This document shows positions 33,097 through 53,293 of a DNA stretch of 64,000 nucleotides, piece by piece. The stretch lies in contig CAVUZH010000022.1 in the NCBI GenBank assembly GCA_963745835.1, positions 96,001 through 160,000 on the forward strand, given 5' to 3'. The stretch comes from an uncultured delta proteobacterium (GTDB lineage: Bacteria; Desulfobacterota; Binatia; UBA9968). The notes beneath the pieces are model-generated. The model was not told the origin of the DNA. It searched no databases and was given only the letters and a program-made list of their open reading frames with translations. Made by a program: the position numbers and the translations under genes. The first letter of the stretch is position 1, and every line of letters starts with the position of its first letter.

Positions 33097-34659
33097 CTAC
33101 AAATTCCTTGGTAGTGAAGAATCAATTGGAGGGCTCCGTCTTAGCGTCACCCCATTCAAAATCCCGACCGGCAACACGATGGTGAACGTTGTGCCTTTGC
33201 CGATTTCGCTCCGGTATGTGATCGTTCCCTTATGATCGCTAATGATCTGCTGCACAATCGGAAGCCCCAAACCCGTGCCCTCGGGTTTGGTGGTTCTAAA
33301 TAACTGGAAGACATCAACGCCATGGGCTATTCCCTCACCCGTGTCCGTCACTTCCAGAATAACCCCTCCCTCTGAAGCAGTGGCCTTGACGATTAACCTT
33401 CCGCCGTTGGGCATCGCTTCGACGGCGTTCTTGCAGAGGTTCAAAATCACCTGCTTTATTTTTTCGCGATCGACAACCATGCCTGGAACGTTTTCCAACT
33501 GAGTTTGGAGGGCGATTTTTGTCGCCCTATACATAGGCAATTGGGCGCTCAGCACCTCCTCGATAATCTGCGTCAAATCAGCCGGGCGCAGGTTGAGCCT
33601 CTGAGGTCGCGCAAACGTTCGATAGTCGGAAAGCAAGGTTGCCAAGCGCTGGACTTCTTGAAATGCGATCTCCAGCGTTTCCTGCAAAGCCGGATCGATC
33701 TTGTGAGCCGTTTCGAGAATCGATTTGACGATTTGTAAGGAAGTGGAAATGCCATTGAGCGGATTACCGATCTCATGGGCAAATACCGCGGCGGTTGTGC
33801 CCAACGTGGCGAGTCGCTCTTTCTCCTGAAGCAATCTCTCCGCCTGCTTGCGTTCCGTGATGTCGCGAATTGCCGCGCTCATCAAAACTTCCCGCCCCGT
33901 TGCAATCGGGCTTAAGCTGATTTCAACCGGGAACTCGCTGCCGTCGCGGCGAACGGCAAATAACTCCATGCCCGTTCCCATCGGCCGAACGTGCGGATTT
34001 TTTGCAAACAAGCCGCGGTGATCCTGATGTCGCTCACGGAATCGTGCGGGAACAAGCCGTTCCACAGGCTTTCCCAGAAGTTGTTTTCGATCATAACCGA
34101 ACAGTCTTTCTGTTTGTGAATTTATCAAGGTAATCATTCCTTGCGCATCGACGATCACCATAGCGTCAGGCGCCGACTCGAGTAAGGAACGGAAAAGCGT
34201 CTCGGTTTCTCTTAATTTCTGCGCGGCAAGTTCGCGCTCGGCGATTTGTTGTTGCAGTTCCTGATTGACCATTTCGAGCGAGCGCGGGCTAGGAAGCGCC
34301 AGCGCCTGCGGAATCAAAGGCCAAAGGGTCGCGGCAGTTGCCACCGAAAGACCGGCGGTGATCGCCTTGATACTTCCGTCCAACCAATAAACCGGTTCCC
34401 AGAGCTTCCATATTCCCATCAGGTGTGTGGTGCCGCATGCAAAGATGAACGCGCTGAACATCAGAAACATCCAGTTAAACGCAAGATCTCGTCGCTTACG
34501 CACGAAGATAACCAGAGCGACAGGTATTAGGTAGTAAGAAATTGCGATCAAAGAATCCGACGCTATATACAACCAGAGGAGCGGTCTCTGCCAGAGAAAA
34601 CAGTGGCCGTGCGGCTCGAAGCCCTCGGATGTAAAAAAGTTGCTCAAAGTTTCGAACAT
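33097..34659 (-). CDS. Sensor histidine kinase: ETR1-like membrane domain + PAS + HisKA + HATPase
   Basis: SDSLIAISYYLIP...FIFACGTTH; LESAPDAMVIVD PAS; AHEIGNPL; NAVEAM, DTGEG, GTGLGL. Confidence 0.92.
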   Translation of the reverse strand: MFETLSNFFTSEGFEPHGHCFLWQRPLLWLYIASDSLIAISYYLIPVALVIFVRKRRDLAFNWMFLMFSAFIFACGTTHLMGIWKLWEPVYWLDGSIKAITAGLSVATAATLWPLIPQALALPSPRSLEMVNQELQQQIAERELAAQKLRETETLFRSLLESAPDAMVIVDAQGMITLINSQTERLFGYDRKQLLGKPVERLVPARFRERHQDHRGLFAKNPHVRPMGTGMELFAVRRDGSEFPVEISLSPIATGREVLMSAAIRDITERKQAERLLQEKERLATLGTTAAVFAHEIGNPLNGISTSLQIVKSILETAHKIDPALQETLEIAFQEVQRLATLLSDYRTFARPQRLNLRPADLTQIIEEVLSAQLPMYRATKIALQTQLENVPGMVVDREKIKQVILNLCKNAVEAMPNGGRLIVKATASEGGVILEVTDTGEGIAHGVDVFQLFRTTKPEGTGLGLPIVQQIISDHKGTITYRSEIGKGTTFTIVLPVGILNGVTLRRSPPIDSSLPRNL

Positions 34660-34720: not shown

Positions 34721-35077
34721 TTAGTGCGTAAACTGAATTGTATCAAGCAGATCGCGCAAAGAGATCGGCTTTTCGAAGTAAAGCGCGCCTACCGCTGCGG
34801 CTTCTGCTTGAGCTTGCTCGGAGCCGAACGCAGTAATGAGAATGAGACGTTTTCCCGAACCCCTACAACTTTGATACTTTAGGACGTCTAGGCCGTTCAC
34901 CTTTCCCGGCAGACGAAAGTCAGAGATGACGATCTCAAAATCGACCCGAGAAATAAGCTCTAACGCAGCCTCGCCATTGTCGGTCTGGTGAACCGTGAAT
35001 TCGGCTTGCTGAAGAAACATTGCCAAGTTCCGGCGGGACAAAGGGTTGTCTTCAACCAGAAGCAGATTACACGACAT
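34721..35077 (-). CDS. Single-domain response regulator
   Basis: LLVEDN, ISDFRLPG, LITAFG, EKP. Confidence 0.88.
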   Translation of the reverse strand: MSCNLLLVEDNPLSRRNLAMFLQQAEFTVHQTDNGEAALELISRVDFEIVISDFRLPGKVNGLDVLKYQSCRGSGKRLILITAFGSEQAQAEAAAVGALYFEKPISLRDLLDTIQFTH

Positions 35078-35392
35078 GCCGGGACAAATTAAACCAAGAT
35101 TGTATTTTAAGCAACAAAAACTTCAGCTTAAGGCGGCAAATTGCGCTTTAGAAACAGCTTCTGTGAAGCTCTTTAGCGCTGCCAAACAGCGCCGCCGTAG
35201 CAAATTGATACAAAATATTTCGATCGATGAAGCTGCTGCATGTAAGCGAGCAGCTTAGGCAGTTTTTCTAGTTTCGCGGAGGCACTATAAAGCTATTGAG
35301 ACCGCGTTTGCATGCTTTTTGTTACTTAGCAGACAAGTCCCTCTTGACCGTTGAGCCCCGATATTTGAGCTCAGAGATCTCTGCCCAGCCGG

Positions 35393-35953
35393 TTACGGCG
35401 TCGCACGCACCGCGGGCCGCTCGAGCAAACGCTCCATCCAAGCTTTGACGTGCGGCAAGTCATCACCAATGCTCACCTGATAACGCTCGCGTCTGACGAA
35501 GAAAGGAATGTAAGTGATATCCGCGAGAGAGTATCCATCGGCTATGTACTCTCGCCCTTGCATTTGTCGATTGAGATTCTCGAGATACGTTCGAAGCTCC
35601 GTTCCGGACTCTTCGACTTTGTAGTTGTGGGCGATATAACCGGCGGCGCGCTGCACGCGGGTGTTGCAGTAGTCGATCCAAATTCTTATGCGCGCCCGGG
35701 CCAGTGGGTCTTTGGGCATCAACGGCGCTTCCGGATACTGTTCTTCCAGGTACTCGTCGATAATCGCGGACTCGTAAACAACCGCATCACCATCGACCAG
35801 AACCGGAACTTTGCCGTAAGGATTTAACTCGAGAAGATCTTTGGGCTTGTTGCCGAGGTCGCATTCGATCAGATCATAGGGAATCTTTTTTTCCGCCAGG
35901 ACAAGCCTTGTCCTGTGAGCGTAGGGTCAGGGGCCGTAAGAAAAGAGCTTCAT
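35393..35953 (-). CDS. Glutathione S-transferase (omega/SspA-like), probable selenoprotein, 186 aa
   Basis: RBS GGAGG, then MKLFSYGP-TGA-PYAHRTRLVLAEKKIPY...LNPYGKVPVL...ESAIIDEYLEE, in frame with ORF 35393..35722. Confidence 0.85.
35897..35915 (-). promoter_or_regulatory. Putative bacterial SECIS hairpin
   Basis: CAGGACAA-GGC-TTGTCCTG perfect 8-bp stem beginning 11 nt after the in-frame TGA (35929-35927). Confidence 0.7.
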
Positions 35954-36111
35954 GACGTCACCTCCATCTGATGGCCTTGTACCACCTGAGAGCCGCGGCG
36001 GCAACAATGCTGATTGATCGAAAGAATTTTTTTACTCCTCAACGTAGAGCGACTTCTTCTCTCAAATTAATTTTAGCGCCGCATCTTAGCAATTGATGCG
36101 CGGGCAGATGG

Positions 36112-36139
36112 TTGACACCCGCCTACGCTATGCGATAAG
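36112..36139 (+). promoter_or_regulatory. Possible sigma70-type promoter for amidohydrolase operon
   Basis: TTGACA-N16-GATAAG with TGn extension. Confidence 0.35.
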
Positions 36140-36211
36140 CGGCCATATAAACCTTTACTGGAATAACGTTTTCACTCTGCATGACGCCGGCAGTTAGCTG
36201 GAGGAGGCCGC

Positions 36212-37141
36212 ATGATTATCGATACGCACTTTCATGCCTTTCCAAAGAAATTTCTCGAGCTCGTGCCCGAGCAATCACAAAGCGACGTTCGCGGCGTGGG
36301 ATTCCACGGCTTTGACCATCAGGAATACCTCGATGTGATGGATCAACACGGCATCGATGTCGGCGTGCTCTCCAATACCGGCGGGCGAATCGAACAGGGC
36401 GGCGACCGGCGCAAGGCGCTGGAGCTGTGCACCATCATCAACGACACATTTGCCGAAGCCCACGCAAAGCACCCGCGCCGCTTCAAAGCGTTCGCCCGTT
36501 TGCCGATGGTCAACCTTGATGATTGTGTCCGGGAGCTCGAGCGGTGTTACCGTGATCTCAACATGCATGGCGTGATCCTGTCGACCAATCTGGCCGGAAG
36601 ATACCTCGACGAGCCGGAATTCAAACCCTTCTGGGACGCGCTCGAGTCAGGTGGAAAACCGCTGTTTCTTCATCCGGCCAATGCGCCATGCCAAGCCAAT
36701 TGGAACAAATATTCGCTGCACCAGAAGCTCCTCTGGCCCACCGACAGCTCTCTGGCGATATCGCGCATCGTTTATAGCGGCGTATTCGATCACTATCCGG
36801 CCATCAAACTCATTGCCTCGCATCTCGGCGGCATGCTTCTGCTTTACCTCGACCGGCTCAACTGGCACGAGGGAAATGTAGAGTGCCGGCGAGAGCCGGA
36901 GGAATACTTTAAAAAGATGTACTACGATACCGCCGGTCCGATCCGCGCCGAATTCATCAAGCTCGTCTACGACACCGTCGGTCCCGATCAGATCCTGTTC
37001 GGCGCCGATTATCCGCACGGCAGAGGCGGCCGCGACGATCAGTTCTATCCGATGACTTTAGCGGCGATGTCGAAGCTCGATATTCCAGACAGTGATAAAC
37101 AGAAGGTTTATTATCTAAACGCGCAGAAACTCGGATTCTGA
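36212..37141 (+). CDS. Amidohydrolase_2 family protein (ACMSD/LigW-like)
   Basis: IDTHFH, LFLHP, SHLGG, YYDT, LFGADYPH. Confidence 0.9.
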   Translation: MIIDTHFHAFPKKFLELVPEQSQSDVRGVGFHGFDHQEYLDVMDQHGIDVGVLSNTGGRIEQGGDRRKALELCTIINDTFAEAHAKHPRRFKAFARLPMVNLDDCVRELERCYRDLNMHGVILSTNLAGRYLDEPEFKPFWDALESGGKPLFLHPANAPCQANWNKYSLHQKLLWPTDSSLAISRIVYSGVFDHYPAIKLIASHLGGMLLLYLDRLNWHEGNVECRREPEEYFKKMYYDTAGPIRAEFIKLVYDTVGPDQILFGADYPHGRGGRDDQFYPMTLAAMSKLDIPDSDKQKVYYLNAQKLGF

Positions 37142-37267
37142 CGGGCCGCTGAAAAAGACCCATATGCTTCGTTGCACTCGGTCGGCTCCGCTCCAACGTA
37201 CTACAACGTACGTCTTCGCTCGTCGATCTTCGTACGCCTCGCATCTGGATCTTTTTGAGCAGCCTGT
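37141..37267. mobile_element. MITE-like element with ~27-bp imperfect terminal inverted repeats
   Basis: ACGGGCCGCTGAAAAAGACCCATATGC ... GCATCTGGATCTTTTTGAGCAGCCTGT. Confidence 0.75.
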
Positions 37268-37307
37268 AGGAGATATTTCCACCAGTCGCTGAATTAAGGA
37301 GGAATCT

Positions 37308-37664
37308 ATGAGCAATCGATTGGAGCACGTTGCCATCTATTGCAAAGATATCAATGAATCGATCGAGTTTTATCGAGCCCACTTCGGCGGTCAGCCCACC
37401 GCTATCAGAAAAGGCGCCGCGGGCTACTCGTTCTGTTTTGTGACTATCGATGGCACGCCGTCGATACAGCTAATGGAATCGTCCGACAAAACCGGCGTAC
37501 ACCACTACGGTTTCATCAGCGATGATATCGAGCAGGCGGCAAAAGAATTCAAAGCAAAGAACGCGCGAATCCTGCGCGAAAATCGTGATCAGTCAGGCAA
37601 ACTCACAACTATCTTTGTACAGGATCCGCACGGGCTAGAGATGGAGATCCGCTCGGCCCGTTAG
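37308..37664 (+). CDS. VOC family protein
   Basis: LEHVAIYCKD, HHYGF, FVQDPHGLEMEI; RBS AAGGAGG. Confidence 0.9.
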   Translation: MSNRLEHVAIYCKDINESIEFYRAHFGGQPTAIRKGAAGYSFCFVTIDGTPSIQLMESSDKTGVHHYGFISDDIEQAAKEFKAKNARILRENRDQSGKLTTIFVQDPHGLEMEIRSAR

Positions 37665-37803
37665 CCAGGGGGGGATCCAGAGAGTCTTTTTGGAAACTCT
37701 CCGATTGCTTTCATGTCGGAACCCAGAGCTACTCAGTTGACATCGTCTGACCTGGGTACGTAGCTTCTCGCAAGGCCGTTCCACCAGCCCTTGAGGAGGA
37801 ACA

Positions 37804-38826
37804 ATGTTTACCGCTCGTTACCAACGCAGCGCCGGCATCATCTTCTTTGCTGTGATCTGGGTGGCGATTGCCGCTGAAGCCGCGCGAGGCCAGGCAAAAC
37901 AGGACGACATCGCCATCGGCTATGCATCCCCGAGCGGCGTCATGACGCCGCTGTACGTCGCGCAGGAACAGGGCTTGTTCAAAAAACACGGCCTGGGAGT
38001 AAAGGAGTTGCTTCTGCTCCGTGGTACCGGGCCAGCCGCGGCGCAGATGCTGGTCGCGGGTACGGCGCCGATCGCCGCCCTCGGCGGCGCTCTCGTGGAA
38101 GGCGCGATTCGCGGCGCCGGCATCGCCTACATCGCCAGCACATCCAATCACCTGATCTTTTCGATCTATTCACGTTCGGAAATCGCCCGTCCGGAAGATC
38201 TCAAAGGAAAAACCGTCGCAGTCGATGCCAAGGGCGGCTCCATCGAACTGGCCACGATCATCGCCCTGAAACAGTTCGGTCTGACTCTCGGCAAAGACGT
38301 GAGCTCGGTTTATCTCGGCGGACCCGTGCCGCAACTAGGCGCTCTGGAAAAAGGCATCGTCGATGCGACGACGTTGTCGGCGCCGACAACCTTGCGCGCC
38401 AGAAAGATGGGCTATAAAGAGTTGATCAACATCGGCGCGCTCAAGCTCAGCTATGTTCACACCGCTATCGGGGTAAACCGCGCCTTCGCCAAGAATAATC
38501 CAGAAAGTGTCGAGGCCTTTCTCAAAGCTTATATCGAAGCGATGAAAATGACCCGAGAACAACCGGATGTCGGAATGAAGGCGATCGCCAAGTACACTCA
38601 GATCGCCGACCCCGAGGCGCTCAAGGCCACTTACGAGACCTTTCTACCCGCATTTCAACAACGCGTGCCTTATGTTTCGCGCGACTCGGTTCAGGGCGTG
38701 CTGAACTTCTCTAGTTCAGCGGAGGCTAACGCTCAACGCGCCGACGATTTTATCGACCATTCTTTGTTAAAGAAGATCGAAGCATCATCTTTTGTTAACA
38801 AACTTTATGGCGACGGCAACCCGTAA
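37804..38826 (+). CDS. NMT1/THI5-like ABC substrate-binding protein
   Basis: LYVAQEQGLFKKHGL, DLKGKTVAV, FLKAYIEA. Confidence 0.9.
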   Translation: MFTARYQRSAGIIFFAVIWVAIAAEAARGQAKQDDIAIGYASPSGVMTPLYVAQEQGLFKKHGLGVKELLLLRGTGPAAAQMLVAGTAPIAALGGALVEGAIRGAGIAYIASTSNHLIFSIYSRSEIARPEDLKGKTVAVDAKGGSIELATIIALKQFGLTLGKDVSSVYLGGPVPQLGALEKGIVDATTLSAPTTLRARKMGYKELINIGALKLSYVHTAIGVNRAFAKNNPESVEAFLKAYIEAMKMTREQPDVGMKAIAKYTQIADPEALKATYETFLPAFQQRVPYVSRDSVQGVLNFSSSAEANAQRADDFIDHSLLKKIEASSFVNKLYGDGNP

Positions 38827-38936
38827 TGAATTCAGGTGCAGCCGCTAACGACCGCTCCAATGAGATAGAATCCGAGAAGCTGGCGGCTACAGAACCCGCT
38901 CTCAGTCTGAGATTTCGAAGGCAGCGAGGATAACCA

Positions 38937-40325
38937 ATGCCGAGAGATATGCGCAGTTGGATTATGCAGTTGGAAGAAGCGGGCGAGCTCATCCGTATCG
39001 CCAAGCCTGTGCATCCGCACACGCAAATGGGCGCGCTGTTATATCAGTCGCGTGAAAGAGGGTTGCTGTTCGAAAACGTCGACGGCTTTCCGGGATGGCG
39101 CAGCCTGGGCATGGCCCCCGCCAACTTGCGCCACGCGGCGATTGCCTTCGATACCAGCATTGAAAAATTAATTCCCACCGCCGCCGAAAGAACTCTCAAA
39201 CGACGCCCCGTCGAGCTGGTCTCAACCGGTCCTGTCAAGGAAGTCATCCTGAAGGGCGATCAAGTCGATCTGACGAAGTTGCCGGCGCATGTAGCAGGCA
39301 GTGAAGAGACTCCCTACATCGCATCCGGATTGATGGTTGCGCGGGATCCGGACAGCGGCATCCGCAACGTCGCGTTCCACCGGTTGCAGATCAAAGGGCC
39401 GAGAAAAACCGGAGCTTTGATCGTACCGCGGCACACCCGCGAGATTCTCAACAAGCACGAGGCGCGCAATCAGCCGATGCCCGTTTCTATTTTTATCGGC
39501 CATCATCCGCTTTACTACATGGCGGCGGCGAGCACCGGCGCGTTCGAAATGGATGAGCTGGAATTGGCCGGCGGCTTGATCGGCGAATCCGCCAGGGTGG
39601 TGAAATGCGAGACCAACGATCTCGAAGTGCCGTTCGACGCGGAGATCGTTCTTGAAGGACGCATTTTGCCAAACGTGCGCGAAGACGAGGGGCCTTTCTC
39701 CGAATTCCATGATTATTACGTCGCCGGCATGGGCAAAAATCCGGTGATCGAAATCGATTGCATCACCAGACGCCACGATGCAATCTTCAAAGCGATCCAG
39801 AATGGCTCGGAGGTCGAAGGCTGCATCTTTCACAAAGTTCCTTTCGGCGTCGCGGTCTACAATCACATCAAAAACATCGGCGGCTATGTCAATTTGCACA
39901 ATCTTCTGGTGCTACCCGGCTTGTTCGGCATCGTCGTGCAAATGACGCCGCGCTTCTACGGCGAGGCGAAGCAAATTTTAATGGGGGTTCTGTCGAGTCC
40001 AATCCTGCACCCGAAGGTGGCCATCGCGGTCGATGAAGACGTCAATATTTTCAATTACTGGGAAGTTCTCTGGGCGGTCAATACGCGCTGCAACCCGCAA
40101 GACGACATCATCGTCATTCCCGGAACTCGCATTCACCCGATGGATCCGACCGGTGTCGAGCCCGTGCCGCCGGGAGGACCTTACTGGCACCGGGTCGGCG
40201 GCAAAGTAATCATCGACGCCACCAAGCCGCCGCTTTGCGCCGGCGAACAGGCGCGCCAACCTTTTCAGCGGCTAAAACCCATGGGATGGGAAACAGTTCG
40301 TCTGGAAGATTTCTTGCCCGGATAG
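38937..40325 (+). CDS. UbiD-family (prFMN-dependent) decarboxylase
   Basis: RNVAFHRLQ, AEIVLEG, EGPFSEFHDYY, VDEDV, IIDATKP. Confidence 0.93.
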   Translation: MPRDMRSWIMQLEEAGELIRIAKPVHPHTQMGALLYQSRERGLLFENVDGFPGWRSLGMAPANLRHAAIAFDTSIEKLIPTAAERTLKRRPVELVSTGPVKEVILKGDQVDLTKLPAHVAGSEETPYIASGLMVARDPDSGIRNVAFHRLQIKGPRKTGALIVPRHTREILNKHEARNQPMPVSIFIGHHPLYYMAAASTGAFEMDELELAGGLIGESARVVKCETNDLEVPFDAEIVLEGRILPNVREDEGPFSEFHDYYVAGMGKNPVIEIDCITRRHDAIFKAIQNGSEVEGCIFHKVPFGVAVYNHIKNIGGYVNLHNLLVLPGLFGIVVQMTPRFYGEAKQILMGVLSSPILHPKVAIAVDEDVNIFNYWEVLWAVNTRCNPQDDIIVIPGTRIHPMDPTGVEPVPPGGPYWHRVGGKVIIDATKPPLCAGEQARQPFQRLKPMGWETVRLEDFLPG

Positions 40326-49634: not shown

Positions 49635-50516
49635 TCAATCACGTTGCTTCATCGCTTCACGCCAATAGCTTGCATCGAAAAATCTTTCCGGTGGATCGTA
49701 GGGTGGTTTGTACACACCCATTTCCTTTCTTAGCTCGATAACCGTGTTTATCGCCGCCGGATTGATCCTAGCTTGCGGCACGACCTTGCGATAAGCCTGC
49801 TCTGCGGAATCTCGGTTGAGCCCTTCTTTGGCCATGATCAGTTCCAGAGTTTCCGCCCGATTTTGCGGCGTCAGCAACCAGTCCGTTGCCGCCGCCCAGG
49901 CGCGAATAAAGCGCACCGTCAGATCGCGATGCTCGAGCAGCCAGCGGCGCAATGTCCAGCCGCATGTCAGCGGCCAACCGGGGACATAGTCTTCGGCGTT
50001 GGCGAGCAGCACCCCGCCCGCGGCTAAAGCCTTGTCGGAAGCTGGCGGCGTCAACATTGCAGCAGCGACTCTGCCGTTCAGAAAAGCCTCCAGCCGTTTG
50101 GGCGAGCTGCCGATGATTTCAATTTCATATTGGTCATCGTCCATGCCATGATGACGAAGGATCTTCTTGCGAATGAGATCGAGGTTCGAATCGCCGGGAT
50201 CACCGGCAAGCAGTTCCCCGCGTAGCTGCGCGATCGACGCAATCTCCGGCTGGCCAATCAGGTACGCGCTCAATCCCTCTTCGGCTTGCATGAAAAGAAG
50301 ATAATCAACTCCATCGGTAGTTGTGCGGGCAATCATCGTATCCGCGCTGCTGAGCGTTAAATCCCAACGTCCCTCGGCCATACCCCGGTTATGATCCGGA
50401 GCATAGGTCGTTTCGTGAAAGCGAATTTCGAGCCCTTCACTAGCGAAAAAGCCCTTATACTCGGCGACCAAATGAGGCGGCCTGCGTTGGTATCCGGTCG
50501 TACTGAGCACATCCAT
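49635..50516 (-). CDS. NMT1-like substrate-binding protein, no signal peptide
   Basis: VAEYKGFFASEGLEI, VRFIRAW, FFDASYW; RBS GGAGG before ATG 50516. Confidence 0.8.
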   Translation of the reverse strand: MDVLSTTGYQRRPPHLVAEYKGFFASEGLEIRFHETTYAPDHNRGMAEGRWDLTLSSADTMIARTTTDGVDYLLFMQAEEGLSAYLIGQPEIASIAQLRGELLAGDPGDSNLDLIRKKILRHHGMDDDQYEIEIIGSSPKRLEAFLNGRVAAAMLTPPASDKALAAGGVLLANAEDYVPGWPLTCGWTLRRWLLEHRDLTVRFIRAWAAATDWLLTPQNRAETLELIMAKEGLNRDSAEQAYRKVVPQARINPAAINTVIELRKEMGVYKPPYDPPERFFDASYWREAMKQRD

Positions 50517-50734
50517 TGCGTTTCCCTCCCAGTTCTTCTCTCTTCTATCGCCAGATGCGGCAACGCTCAAGCAGTCGAACAGCGGGCTTGATCTGGCCAT
50601 TACTCGCCGATTACGCCGATCATCCAACTGTCGCCTGTTAGCTGTCCCATCAAACTGCGCAATCAAAGTCATCTTGCTTTGGCAAACCAATTCAGTAGAC
50701 ATAAGACTAATTATATCTAATCAGGGACACCTCA

Positions 50735-51436
50735 ATGAAGCTAAAAGACAAAGTCGCGCTGGTCACCGGCGGAGCAAGAGGAATCGGTAAAGCCGTCGCC
50801 CTGGCTTACGCGCGCGAGGGCGCCAGGTTGGCGATTTGCGCGCGCACGACATCGGAGATCGATGAGACGGTTCAAGAGATTCAAAAGTTGAAAGCAGAGG
50901 CCAAAGGTTGGTCCTGCGATGTCTCCGTCGAAGATTCGGTTAAAGACTTTGTCGGCGATGTTATAAAAGACTTCGGACGTATCGACGTGTTGGTGAATAA
51001 CGCGGGAGTGATGACCCGGCCGGTTCCAATCACTCAGCTCGAAGTGAAGAAGTGGGATTATACGATTGCGGTAAATTTGCGCGGACCATTTCTCATAACT
51101 CAGTCGGTGTTGCCCGTCATGATCAAGCAAAAAAGCGGCTCGATCATCAACGTTTCATCGACGGTGGGACGCGGCGCCTACGCCAACTTTATCGCCTATG
51201 CCACTTCAAAATGGGGACTGGAAGGATTTACTCAGACCCTGGCCGCTGAAGTCCGCGCGTCAAACATTCGTGTCAACTCCGTAGAACCAGGTTACGTGGC
51301 AACCAAATTGACAGGCTATAGCGGCAGTCGCCCGGAATCTGTGACCGATGTTTTTCTTTATTTAGCATCGGATGAAGCGAACGGGATCACCGGCAAAATG
51401 CTGAGCTCCTCAGGATGGAAGTCTCAAATAAAATAA
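50735..51436 (+). CDS. Short-chain dehydrogenase/reductase
   Basis: TGGARGIG, NNAG, YATSK. Confidence 0.95.
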   Translation: MKLKDKVALVTGGARGIGKAVALAYAREGARLAICARTTSEIDETVQEIQKLKAEAKGWSCDVSVEDSVKDFVGDVIKDFGRIDVLVNNAGVMTRPVPITQLEVKKWDYTIAVNLRGPFLITQSVLPVMIKQKSGSIINVSSTVGRGAYANFIAYATSKWGLEGFTQTLAAEVRASNIRVNSVEPGYVATKLTGYSGSRPESVTDVFLYLASDEANGITGKMLSSSGWKSQIK

Positions 51437-51477
51437 ACGCCCCGGGGCGAAGTTCCGATTCAGCTCTAGTTCCATCA

Positions 51478-52494
51478 TCATCCCCTCGTCGGCACCCCGT
51501 CTGGATAGATCTGTTTGAGCAAGCCGTCGTCGATGAGCTGCTTCATAAAGCGGTTGTCGACAAATTCAGCGATGAAAGCCTCGGCCTGCTGGCCCGATAC
51601 TCCTAGATGTTCGAGAATGCTTCTCACCCCTTCGGCAGTCGGGGTGGGCACGGGCTCCATGTATTGGACTTCAGAATCATAGGTGTGTTGCAGGATCGCA
51701 CTATCAGAAACCCGGGTATACTTTTGTAAAATGCTCCTGGCTTCACTCGGGCGCCTTCTGATATAGGCGACTGCCTCGGTGATGCCGGCGACAAAGCTGC
51801 GCATGCGCGCCGGCTGTTTGGCGGTATAAGAACGCAGCACCGTAGTGCAATTTCCGGCATAGGGAATGTTCAGATCGCCTAGCTCCAGCAACGGCTTGAA
51901 GCCTGCCGCCGCAGCCTGGATATCGTTGGGCGGTGACGCAAAGATGCCGTGCACTCTGCCATTGGCCAGCGCGGCAAAGGCAGCGCTGGTGGAGCCGCTA
52001 TAGATGATCGAAACATCCTGCCCGGGCCTCATTCGCTCGCGTGCCATAAATAGTTTAGCGGCAAAATCGCTGGCGGAACCTGGATTGGCGACCGCGACAA
52101 CTTTCCCCCGCAGATCGGCAATCTTCTGGATTGCCGGGTGCACCATTATCTTGGACGTGAGCTTGTGAACCACACAGGAGGTAACCGCAACGTCTCCCCC
52201 GCTCAAGCGCATCTGCACCACAGGGGGCCCGGCGGAAAAATACACCTGTATGTCGCCGCTCACCAGGGCCGGCCTGCCTGCGGCGCGCGGCAGATAAATT
52301 GGCCTGACCTGCAGACCATGCTTTTCAAACAGCTTTGCATCGGTCCCGACCCAGAGAGGCAGGATCGATCCAGAGAGGGTTCCGTGTCCGGCGAGAATGG
52401 TCGGCCGTTCTTGAGCATGCGATGCTCTCGACGACAAAACGATGATCGCCAATGCAATCAGTTGTTGCCGTAAAAGGCGACGGTTCAGTCTCAT
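51478..52494 (-). CDS. NMT1/THI5-like ABC substrate-binding protein
   Basis: LWVGTDAKLFEKHGL, DLRGKVVAV, FVDNRF. Confidence 0.9.
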   Translation of the reverse strand: MRLNRRLLRQQLIALAIIVLSSRASHAQERPTILAGHGTLSGSILPLWVGTDAKLFEKHGLQVRPIYLPRAAGRPALVSGDIQVYFSAGPPVVQMRLSGGDVAVTSCVVHKLTSKIMVHPAIQKIADLRGKVVAVANPGSASDFAAKLFMARERMRPGQDVSIIYSGSTSAAFAALANGRVHGIFASPPNDIQAAAAGFKPLLELGDLNIPYAGNCTTVLRSYTAKQPARMRSFVAGITEAVAYIRRRPSEARSILQKYTRVSDSAILQHTYDSEVQYMEPVPTPTAEGVRSILEHLGVSGQQAEAFIAEFVDNRFMKQLIDDGLLKQIYPDGVPTRG

Positions 52495-52755
52495 ATCAAC
52501 CTCACTGTAGGAACGATATTTCAGGCGCGCACGGGCGAAGCTGTGATTACGAATTAGCGCGCCAAAATAGAATGCACGTAGACATTTCAGTGCCTGGCTT
52601 GGCGCCAGTTTGCAAGCTGTTCAGGGGTCTGGACCGGCAGTTTTGTTTGTCGTGAAGTCAACCGAGGCGGGCAGCTTGATATAAATCCGAAGATCAACAG
52701 GCAGTTCGAGCCAAGTGTTCGCCGTGGGTTCTTGAGCAGAACGCTTCGTGAGTAA

Positions 52756-53142
52756 TCAAGAATGATTATCGTCGCAGTTTTGTGTGATTAGCTCGCCAAT
52801 CTTTCGCTTCAATTCTATCATTGTGAAGGGCTTGACGATGTAACTGTTGCAACCCGCTTCCAGGCAAGCATTGAGATCGGCACGGCGACACATCGCCGTA
52901 GCCGCGAGAATCGGGATGTCCTTGGTCTCGGGATTGTCGCGCACGGCCCGGCTCGCCTGCCAGCCATCCATCTCCGGCATCATGATGTCCATCAGGATTA
53001 AGTCCGGCTGCTCTGCAATCGCTTTTGCAATTCCTGTATAACCATTCTCGGCCGAGATCACCAAATAACCTAGCATTTCGAGTTGACATCGAAGTACTTC
53101 GCGTACGTCCGGGTTGTCGTCGACAATCAAAATTTTCGCCAT
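52756..53142 (-). CDS. Single-domain response regulator (DivK-like)
   Basis: ILIVDDN, PDLILMDIMMPEMDG, YIVKPF. Confidence 0.9.
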   Translation of the reverse strand: MAKILIVDDNPDVREVLRCQLEMLGYLVISAENGYTGIAKAIAEQPDLILMDIMMPEMDGWQASRAVRDNPETKDIPILAATAMCRRADLNACLEAGCNSYIVKPFTMIELKRKIGELITQNCDDNHS

Positions 53143-53293
53143 GCTAAGTGCTCCGGCGGTGCTCTCGGAACATGCCGGGGTACTATTATCGCCTAAGATT
53201 GTTGCCGGGCGCAAATGATTCAAATACTTACATGCAGGATATCGGCTGATATCTGAGGGGATCATGGGGGCTTGGCCGCGACCCCCAGATGGA

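Follow-up and report, generated by a model that had tools for sequence, protein, structure and literature searches.

Selenoproteins with a glutathione S-transferase (GST) fold have been described in small numbers from marine metagenomes. GST is listed as a selenoprotein family with four sequences in the Sargasso Sea set of 2005 (PMC1088965), and the GOS study of 2008 gives 12 members with selenocysteine (Sec) against 1,036 Cys homologs (PMC2398784). The family is entered as "GST-like protein", PF13409 / COG0625, in reviews of 2022 and 2026 (PMC9312934, PMC13188914), the later of which describes the functions of GST-like selenoproteins as largely uncharacterized (PMC13188914).

The locus described here was found in a window of 64,000 nucleotides (C22:96001-160000; the whole stretch of DNA that was analyzed) from the genome of an uncultured delta proteobacterium. 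An earlier reading of the window, made from its letters without database searches (the sequence-only reading), had proposed a GST with Sec in a U-P-Y-A motif and had remarked that such proteins, while rare, are reported from metagenomes, which is correct (PMC1088965, PMC2398784). As far as the published family is described in these sources, the locus shares with it the GST fold, an in-frame UGA, a SECIS-like hairpin downstream and widespread Cys homologs, and its top Pfam hit is likewise PF13409. The published members are of marine origin and number only 4 and 12 sequences, whereas the U-P-Y-A clade defined below comes from soil and rhizosphere and extends across an order; the comparison is with the published descriptions only. 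A literature search found no report of a Sec-GST in the Binatota/Binatia lineage. The family is known but rare; its soil-borne, order-wide member is new and is systematically mis-called in public databases. We consider it very likely that the locus is a genuine selenoprotein gene, encoding a GST whose catalytic Sec is specified by UGA.

The reading frame and its hairpin

The gene lies on the reverse strand of the window and comprises the following elements.

35961..35965, minus strand: GGAGG ribosome-binding site, read from the sequence, with a 7-nt spacer before the ATG
35393..35953, minus strand: full coding sequence of the putative selenoprotein GST, 186 codons including Sec9, plus TAA; translated with TGA as U
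35953-35951, minus strand: ATG start; codons 2-8 encode KLFSYGP
35927..35929, minus strand: in-frame TGA at codon 9, motif U-P-Y-A, from sequence and conservation
35926-35916, minus strand: 11-nt spacer from UGA to hairpin, from sequence
35897..35915, minus strand: SECIS-like hairpin, from sequence and folding; the loop begins 19 nt past the UGA
35915-35908, minus strand: 5' arm of the hairpin, CAGGACAA, from sequence
35907-35905, minus strand: hairpin loop, GGC, from sequence
35904-35897, minus strand: 3' arm of the hairpin, TTGTCCTG, from sequence
35395-35393, minus strand: TAA stop; the frame is open from the TGA onward

Translated with TGA as U, the frame yields 186 residues with the N-terminus MKLFSYGPUPYAHRTRLVLAEK. 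Pfam recognizes both the N-terminal thioredoxin-like and the C-terminal helical domain (GST_N_2, 76.5 bits, E 2.5e-21; GST_N_3, 75.2; GST_N, 62.8; GST_C, 36.6; all above cut-off). The succession of elements put forward by the sequence-only reading (GGAGG, ATG, KLFSYGP, TGA and a frame open through a complete GST) is borne out in each part by sequence, translation and Pfam. It had also observed that the open reading frame track holds only a C-terminal part of this gene, and the table-11 list indeed contains only a 109-aa piece with a TTG start (35393-35722).

The hairpin claimed for the position 11 nt past the TGA is present as a perfect 8-bp stem closed by the loop GGC. Every window position on both strands was scored by the four rules that PMC13188914 prints for the bacterial SECIS model (the Zhang and Gladyshev consensus). 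The GST hairpin passes all four (loop GGC, 8 bp, spacing 19, hairpin-only energy -9.2 kcal/mol), in agreement with the bacterial-SECIS-like spacing and apical G first read from the letters. In its location within the coding sequence, its 11-nt spacer and a loop 19 nt past the UGA it resembles the SECIS of E. coli fdhF type, and it has in common with bacterial SECIS elements G at the first loop positions (GGC, closed by an A-U pair) and an energy below -7.5 kcal/mol. The E. coli fdhF-type SECIS carries a bulged U; the GST hairpin differs in having a 3-nt loop and a perfect 8-bp stem without this bulge. It is further unlike typical SECIS elements in that its sequence is essentially invariant across the order and matches no Rfam model: a search of 35000-36300 at E up to 1 returned no family and only a chance snoRNA match.

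Taken by itself, the hairpin is statistically unremarkable. The fold of a 66-nt region has z = -0.63 relative to shuffles, 46 of 200 being equally stable, and an equally good hairpin under the SECIS rules follows 2.1% of 127,820 window positions and 54 of the 2,072 UGA trinucleotides (any frame) in the window. Its evidential weight derives from its conservation and not from single-sequence statistics. Once relatives are compared, the joint occurrence of TGA, open GST frame and hairpin is far beyond chance.

Conservation of the UGA codon and the hairpin

Relatives were searched in six frames, using a set of 41 genomes (that of the window and 40 others) from three families and 22 genera of one order; the unpublished genomes G012 and G018 are included in the GST and selB tallies, and all statements hold without them. 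The GST match contains exactly one in-frame TGA in 39 of the 41 genomes, at 54-99% protein identity, and orthologs of equal length are likewise present in 39 of 41. One further GST copy ends at a contig edge before codon 24, an extra match in G034 starts at residue 15 and is uninformative on the Sec site, and one genome (93% complete) gave no ortholog-level GST match in the six-frame search. Forty loci were excised, one of which lacks its 5' end. The remaining 39, which include L030 from the unpublished G018, were scored for codon 9; 36 are of the ortholog type and three are second paralogs. This codon is TGA in 39 of 39 loci, with the start codon eight codons upstream, and a GGAGG- or GAGG-like site stands at the equivalent place in most relatives.

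The sequence-only reading had pointed to the TGA and hairpin of close relatives, and to homologs with Cys or TGA at codon 9, as places to look. Both features are kept in these 39 loci, extending to distant relatives, and Cys appears at the site in distant homologs. A quick maximum-likelihood tree (148 sequences) groups the 39 U-P-Y-A sequences in a single clade (SH-aLRT 97) that contains no Cys form; no full-length Cys form was found among the 120 best database hits either (at least 71% identity). In a phylum-wide even sample, an ortholog (E <= 1e-45) was found in only 2 of the 301 genomes searched, both from the family of the window. An exact scan detected the 31-nt UGA-plus-hairpin pattern unchanged in at least 120 public metagenome contigs. 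Eighty contigs were fetched, 63 of them with a complete downstream frame whose protein is just 54-79% identical to that of the window; having been chosen by the pattern, the 80 gauge its spread and are no unbiased measure of conservation.

Within the gene, hairpin codons 14-18 are frozen at synonymous sites (36 non-redundant sequences, including L030). Arg14 and Arg16 are encoded by AGG in 72 of 72 instances, compared with 52 of the 485 Arg codons in the rest of these genes, and Val18 is GTC in 36 of 36. Leu17 is CTT wherever it occurs (23 of 23); the other 13 sequences carry Ile (ATT), a change confined to the third base of the loop. For Thr15, 30 orthologs use ACA and six use ACT, the latter producing a U-U mismatch within the stem. 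Flanking invariant residues vary in codon (four codons for Pro10, three for Ala12, six for Leu3), and the median codon entropy over 73 conserved degenerate columns, hairpin codons included, is 1.35 bits.

RNAalifold was run on 26 of 34 distinct sequences, omitting near-duplicates, the unpublished L030 and three U-P-W-C genes (below). The six core pairs are identical in all 26 sequences, and no covariation was found in the hairpin within the U-P-Y-A clade (covariation term 0.03), because the core stem is invariant there. The basal C-G pair is U-G once, U-A once and broken in 4 of 26. Strict contiguous-stem scoring passes 29 of 42 Sec loci at -7.5 kcal/mol, and whole-segment folds return the same hairpin in all 27 distinct 48-nt sequences (-8.1 to -17.3 kcal/mol).

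The stretch is present in soil and rhizosphere runs of 11 studies. Four runs were compared as assembled contigs, not reads: one DNA run and three RNA-library runs from three studies. The RNA-library contigs, derived from close relatives (90-99% alike) and possibly including DNA carry-over, span 35323-36012, 35617-35960 and 35856-36030, crossing the start codon, TGA and hairpin. Among the listed differences none falls in 35856-35955, while many lie elsewhere in the gene. The inspection of 35927-35929 suggested by the sequence-only reading thus has an answer at the level of contigs, all four runs covering the TGA and no listed difference affecting it.

These data bear on whether the TGA is a true stop, in which case the locus would be a pseudogene, the result of a sequencing error, or a leader peptide of eight codons with an N-truncated GST initiated internally behind it. 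Table-11 gene finding yields only truncated ORFs, as such a reading would have it, and 118 of the best 120 database proteins are calls of 136-177 aa that lack the N-terminus (of the other two, one starts right past the TGA and one has W at the TGA). Against it, the same TGA is found at the same codon in 39 of 39 loci from three families and in one DNA and three RNA-library runs, and error and recent decay are therefore ruled out. Codons 1-8 and 10-28 change in the manner of coding sequence, conserved residues showing many synonymous substitutions, and a start codon is placed exactly eight codons before the TGA in 78 of the 80 pattern-chosen contigs. A truncated product would lack strand β1, the catalytic residue and helix α1 (the Pfam N-domain match covers residues 1-76); in the window no start codon comes right past the TGA, and the first table-11 start gives 109 aa only. 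A true stop is extremely unlikely on this evidence. The public records of the clade (P0002-P0121) are named glutathione S-transferase family protein, and the titled relatives are MAGs labeled Candidatus Binatia or Deltaproteobacteria.

The genome of the window carries a second Sec-GST paralog at C3:947431-947982 (L058, L081), 55% identical, with the N-terminus VKLYSCHT-U-PYAHRTRIVLSEK and the same hairpin except for the loop, GGA. A Ser-type GST paralog (S-S-P-N-C-Q) is located 11 kb from it, at C3:959000-959587. No SECIS-like hairpin was found in eight Ser-type paralogs with this motif, the best scoring -5.8 kcal/mol. Some relatives possess a separate Sec-GST clade with the motif U-P-W-C (UxxC), approximately 35% identical, with TGA at the equal position (L061, L062 and L063, from G009, G017 and G033; also a match in the unpublished G012). 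The tree places these sequences outside the U-P-Y-A clade. Their hairpin, AAGUGCG-GAU-CGCACUU with a spacing of 20, has another sequence and the same geometry. A U-P-W-C Sec-GST was not found in the genome of the window.

Selenocysteine machinery and the reading of UGA

The machinery for Sec, which the sequence-only reading had proposed to look for in the genome, is all found. The tRNA-Sec reaches 74.2 bits (cut-off 47) and is called tRNA-SeC(tca) by ARAGORN, and selA (608.6 bits), selB (394.3) and selD (383.4) each exceed their curated cut-offs. The three sel genes are grouped at C22:65479-70161 (L017, L009 and L018), on the contig of the window and outside the window itself, 61-66 kb from the GST. 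Across the genome set, selB is above cut-off in 36 of 41; the five genomes with no selB match are MAGs of 210-790 contigs, estimated to be 81-100% complete. TGA is the commonest stop in the genome of the window, where it ends 1,015 of 2,417 long frames, and is thus an ordinary stop in a code that is not reassigned.

Two formate-dehydrogenase-like regions and selD also contain in-frame TGA codons. The formate dehydrogenase alpha-like gene at C18 ~417150-419000 (L075) has its Sec site in HQARL-U-HSSS, followed by a SECIS-like hairpin with an 11-nt spacer, a 7-bp stem and the loop GGUCU; a second in-frame TGA occurs 46 codons upstream (FKTNQ-TGA-EGRVVN). At C23 ~50200-53200, a second such region reads NQARI-TGA-HSSS, and the homology spans three frames, which suggests frameshifts or assembly errors. 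The TGA of selD lies in V-K-A-A-G-U-A-A-K, and its hairpin, GUGCAA-GUU-UUGCAC, has the loop 33 nt past the UGA. Scanned genome-wide, an AAG[GT]NTT apex that has a stem and is preceded by an in-frame TGA turned up at eight candidate sites, of which five were rejected, having no recognizable coding context, and the two GSTs and selD look real; this apex motif is too narrow for listing the selenoproteome. The genome is rated 9.3% contaminated.

An alternative to Sec is that the UGA is read without selenium, by a reassigned code (Trp or Gly) or by a near-cognate tRNA (Cys or Trp), with the hairpin acting in mRNA stability or pausing. Bacteria are known to read through UGA with near-cognate tRNAs, the assignment of Sec is made from sequence, and database entry P0002 has W at the site; this W probably arose because the gene, on a contig of 1 kb, was called with TGA as Trp. 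Several observations oppose this alternative: TGA is the commonest terminator, the Sec system is complete and order-wide, and the site is that of the catalytic Cys in homologs. In addition, the hairpin conforms to SECIS rules of spacing and loop, common to the fdh and selD Sec sites. Were Cys or Trp sufficient, a sense codon would be expected, and it occurs in 0 of 39 loci. Reading of the UGA without selenium is very unlikely, and the interpretation as a U-P-Y-A selenocysteine GST, as first proposed, finds support in the conserved TGA and hairpin, the Sec machinery and the Cys at the aligned site.

From this combination we infer insertion of selenium at codon 9. Translation would begin at the ATG at 35953. 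At the UGA of codon 9 the hairpin CAGGACAA-GGC-UUGUCCUG, 11 nt downstream in the mRNA, would recruit SelB with Sec-tRNA(Sec), and Sec would be inserted in place of termination. The hairpin is built from the helix α1 codons for R-T-R-L-V-L, AGG ACA AGG pairing with CUU GUC CU; these codons, including the otherwise rare AGG, would be fixed because they form the hairpin.

Catalytic site, gene context and the U-P-Y-A clade

Among the best 150 cluster representatives, 127 of at most 330 aa were aligned; 19 are without the N-terminus, and 108 were scored. Of these, 90 have Cys at the column of Sec9, 17 have Ser and one has Asp, for the most part in the form C-P-[FY]-x. The best solved structures (PDB entries 6v91 and 4qq7, E about 5e-30, both labeled stringent starvation protein A) align the Cys of TCPFSQR with Sec9, and the plant GST 7dwf aligns the Ser of W-P-S-P-F. 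In Cys- and Ser-type GSTs the catalytic Cys or Ser occupies this position at the start of helix α1. Cys-type GSTs (human GSTO1, PDB entry 1eem; the SspA-like 6v91 and 4qq7) have C-P-[FY]-x at helix α1, which in 6v91 and 4qq7 aligns with U-P-Y-A; the protein differs from them in that Sec replaces Cys.

U-P-Y-A is the Sec analog of the Omega motif C-P-[FY]-A, and GSTO1 entries match with E 1.5e-23, from query residue 2 and GSTO1 chain residue 24-29. Omega-class GSTs have an N-terminal extension before strand β1. Such an extension is lacking here, only eight residues preceding Sec9. No curated GST subfamily model matches at cut-off, the best being SspA (NF007016) with 109.9 versus 314 bits, and for this reason the label "omega-type" exceeds the evidence.

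In an alignment of 92 sequences, Pro50 never varies and Ser62 is conserved to at least 90%. These residues (the cis-Pro of a VP motif and the Ser of E-S before helix α3, respectively) belong to the G-site of GSTs, and their retention is consistent with an intact glutathione site. The genome contains gshB above cut-off and a GCS2-type glutamate-cysteine ligase, and the Sec-GST may well use glutathione.

The protein might instead be a Sec protein devoid of glutathione-dependent activity, an SspA-like RNA-polymerase-associated regulator with a redox-sensing selenol. The best curated model and the labels of the best structures, 6v91 and 4qq7, both point toward SspA. The score of 109.9 bits is, however, far below the 314-bit SspA cut-off, and the glutathione-binding Pro50 and Ser62 are kept. 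E. coli SspA is not known to have a Cys at the position aligned with Sec, whereas the U-P-Y-A clade always keeps Sec there; moreover, two to three paralogous Sec-GSTs per lineage are more like an enzyme family. An SspA-like regulator is very unlikely.

The selenoprotein GST would accordingly be pictured, from the type of its catalytic residue, as a cytoplasmic Cys-type (thiol-transferase) GST with Sec in place of the catalytic Cys at the start of helix α1, in U-P-Y-A. Its selenolate would attack a glutathionylated or disulfide substrate, forming an Se-SG selenenylsulfide that a second glutathione would resolve to GSSG. The chemistry would be the deglutathionylation and reduction of Cys-GSTs, sped up by selenium.

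The genes flanking the GST are listed below.

36212-40325, plus strand: divergent cluster upstream of the GST, with Amidohydro_2, glyoxalase/VOC, an NMT1-type binding protein and a UbiD-family decarboxylase
33097-34659, minus strand: histidine kinase, with an ethylene-receptor-like N-terminal domain (ETR1_N, E 1.2e-40) and the domains PAS, HisKA and HATPase
34721-35077, minus strand: single-domain response regulator next to this kinase; the pair is directly downstream of the GST

These neighbors accompany the GST in eight of eight loci within the genus. None of their orthologs was found at 12 loci from other genera, one of which has a 24%-identical Amidohydro_2. The neighbors in other genera include PaaA/PaaC-like proteins, a metallo-β-lactamase, an NMT1-type binding protein, a cupin, DUF3105 and another GST. 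The compared loci yielded no operon partner common to them, and the Sec-GST gene looks monocistronic; in a scan for promoters and terminators, sites were no more numerous than in shuffles. The divergent amidohydrolase/VOC/UbiD cluster noted by the sequence-only reading is present, but the hint of aromatic or xenobiotic catabolism that it drew from the cluster is weak: with neighboring genes conserved only within the genus, a link to aromatic catabolism is unsupported. The gene context gives no firm clue to the substrate.

It is tempting, if only tentatively, to see in these sequences a distinct terrestrial Sec-GST subfamily with a single origin in this Binatia-labeled order, no reversion to Cys, and a SECIS frozen down to 54% protein identity. 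If so, the enzyme would catalyze a reaction in which sulfur cannot replace selenium, and its hairpin, 19 nt long and nine codons into the gene, would rank among the smallest natural SECIS elements of bacteria and among the most rigidly conserved. The U-P-W-C clade in the same order would then represent repeated recruitment of Sec into GSTs.

The public records found for the clade are N-truncated and lack the catalytic residue, and functional and selenoproteome surveys of soil metagenomes consequently under-count it. The short, invariant hairpin in its early position may offer a compact natural system for studies of SelB-SECIS recognition. GST-like selenoproteins, previously a handful of marine sequences, prove to be fixed in a soil lineage that is abundant, and the genome of the window has two Sec-GST paralogs.
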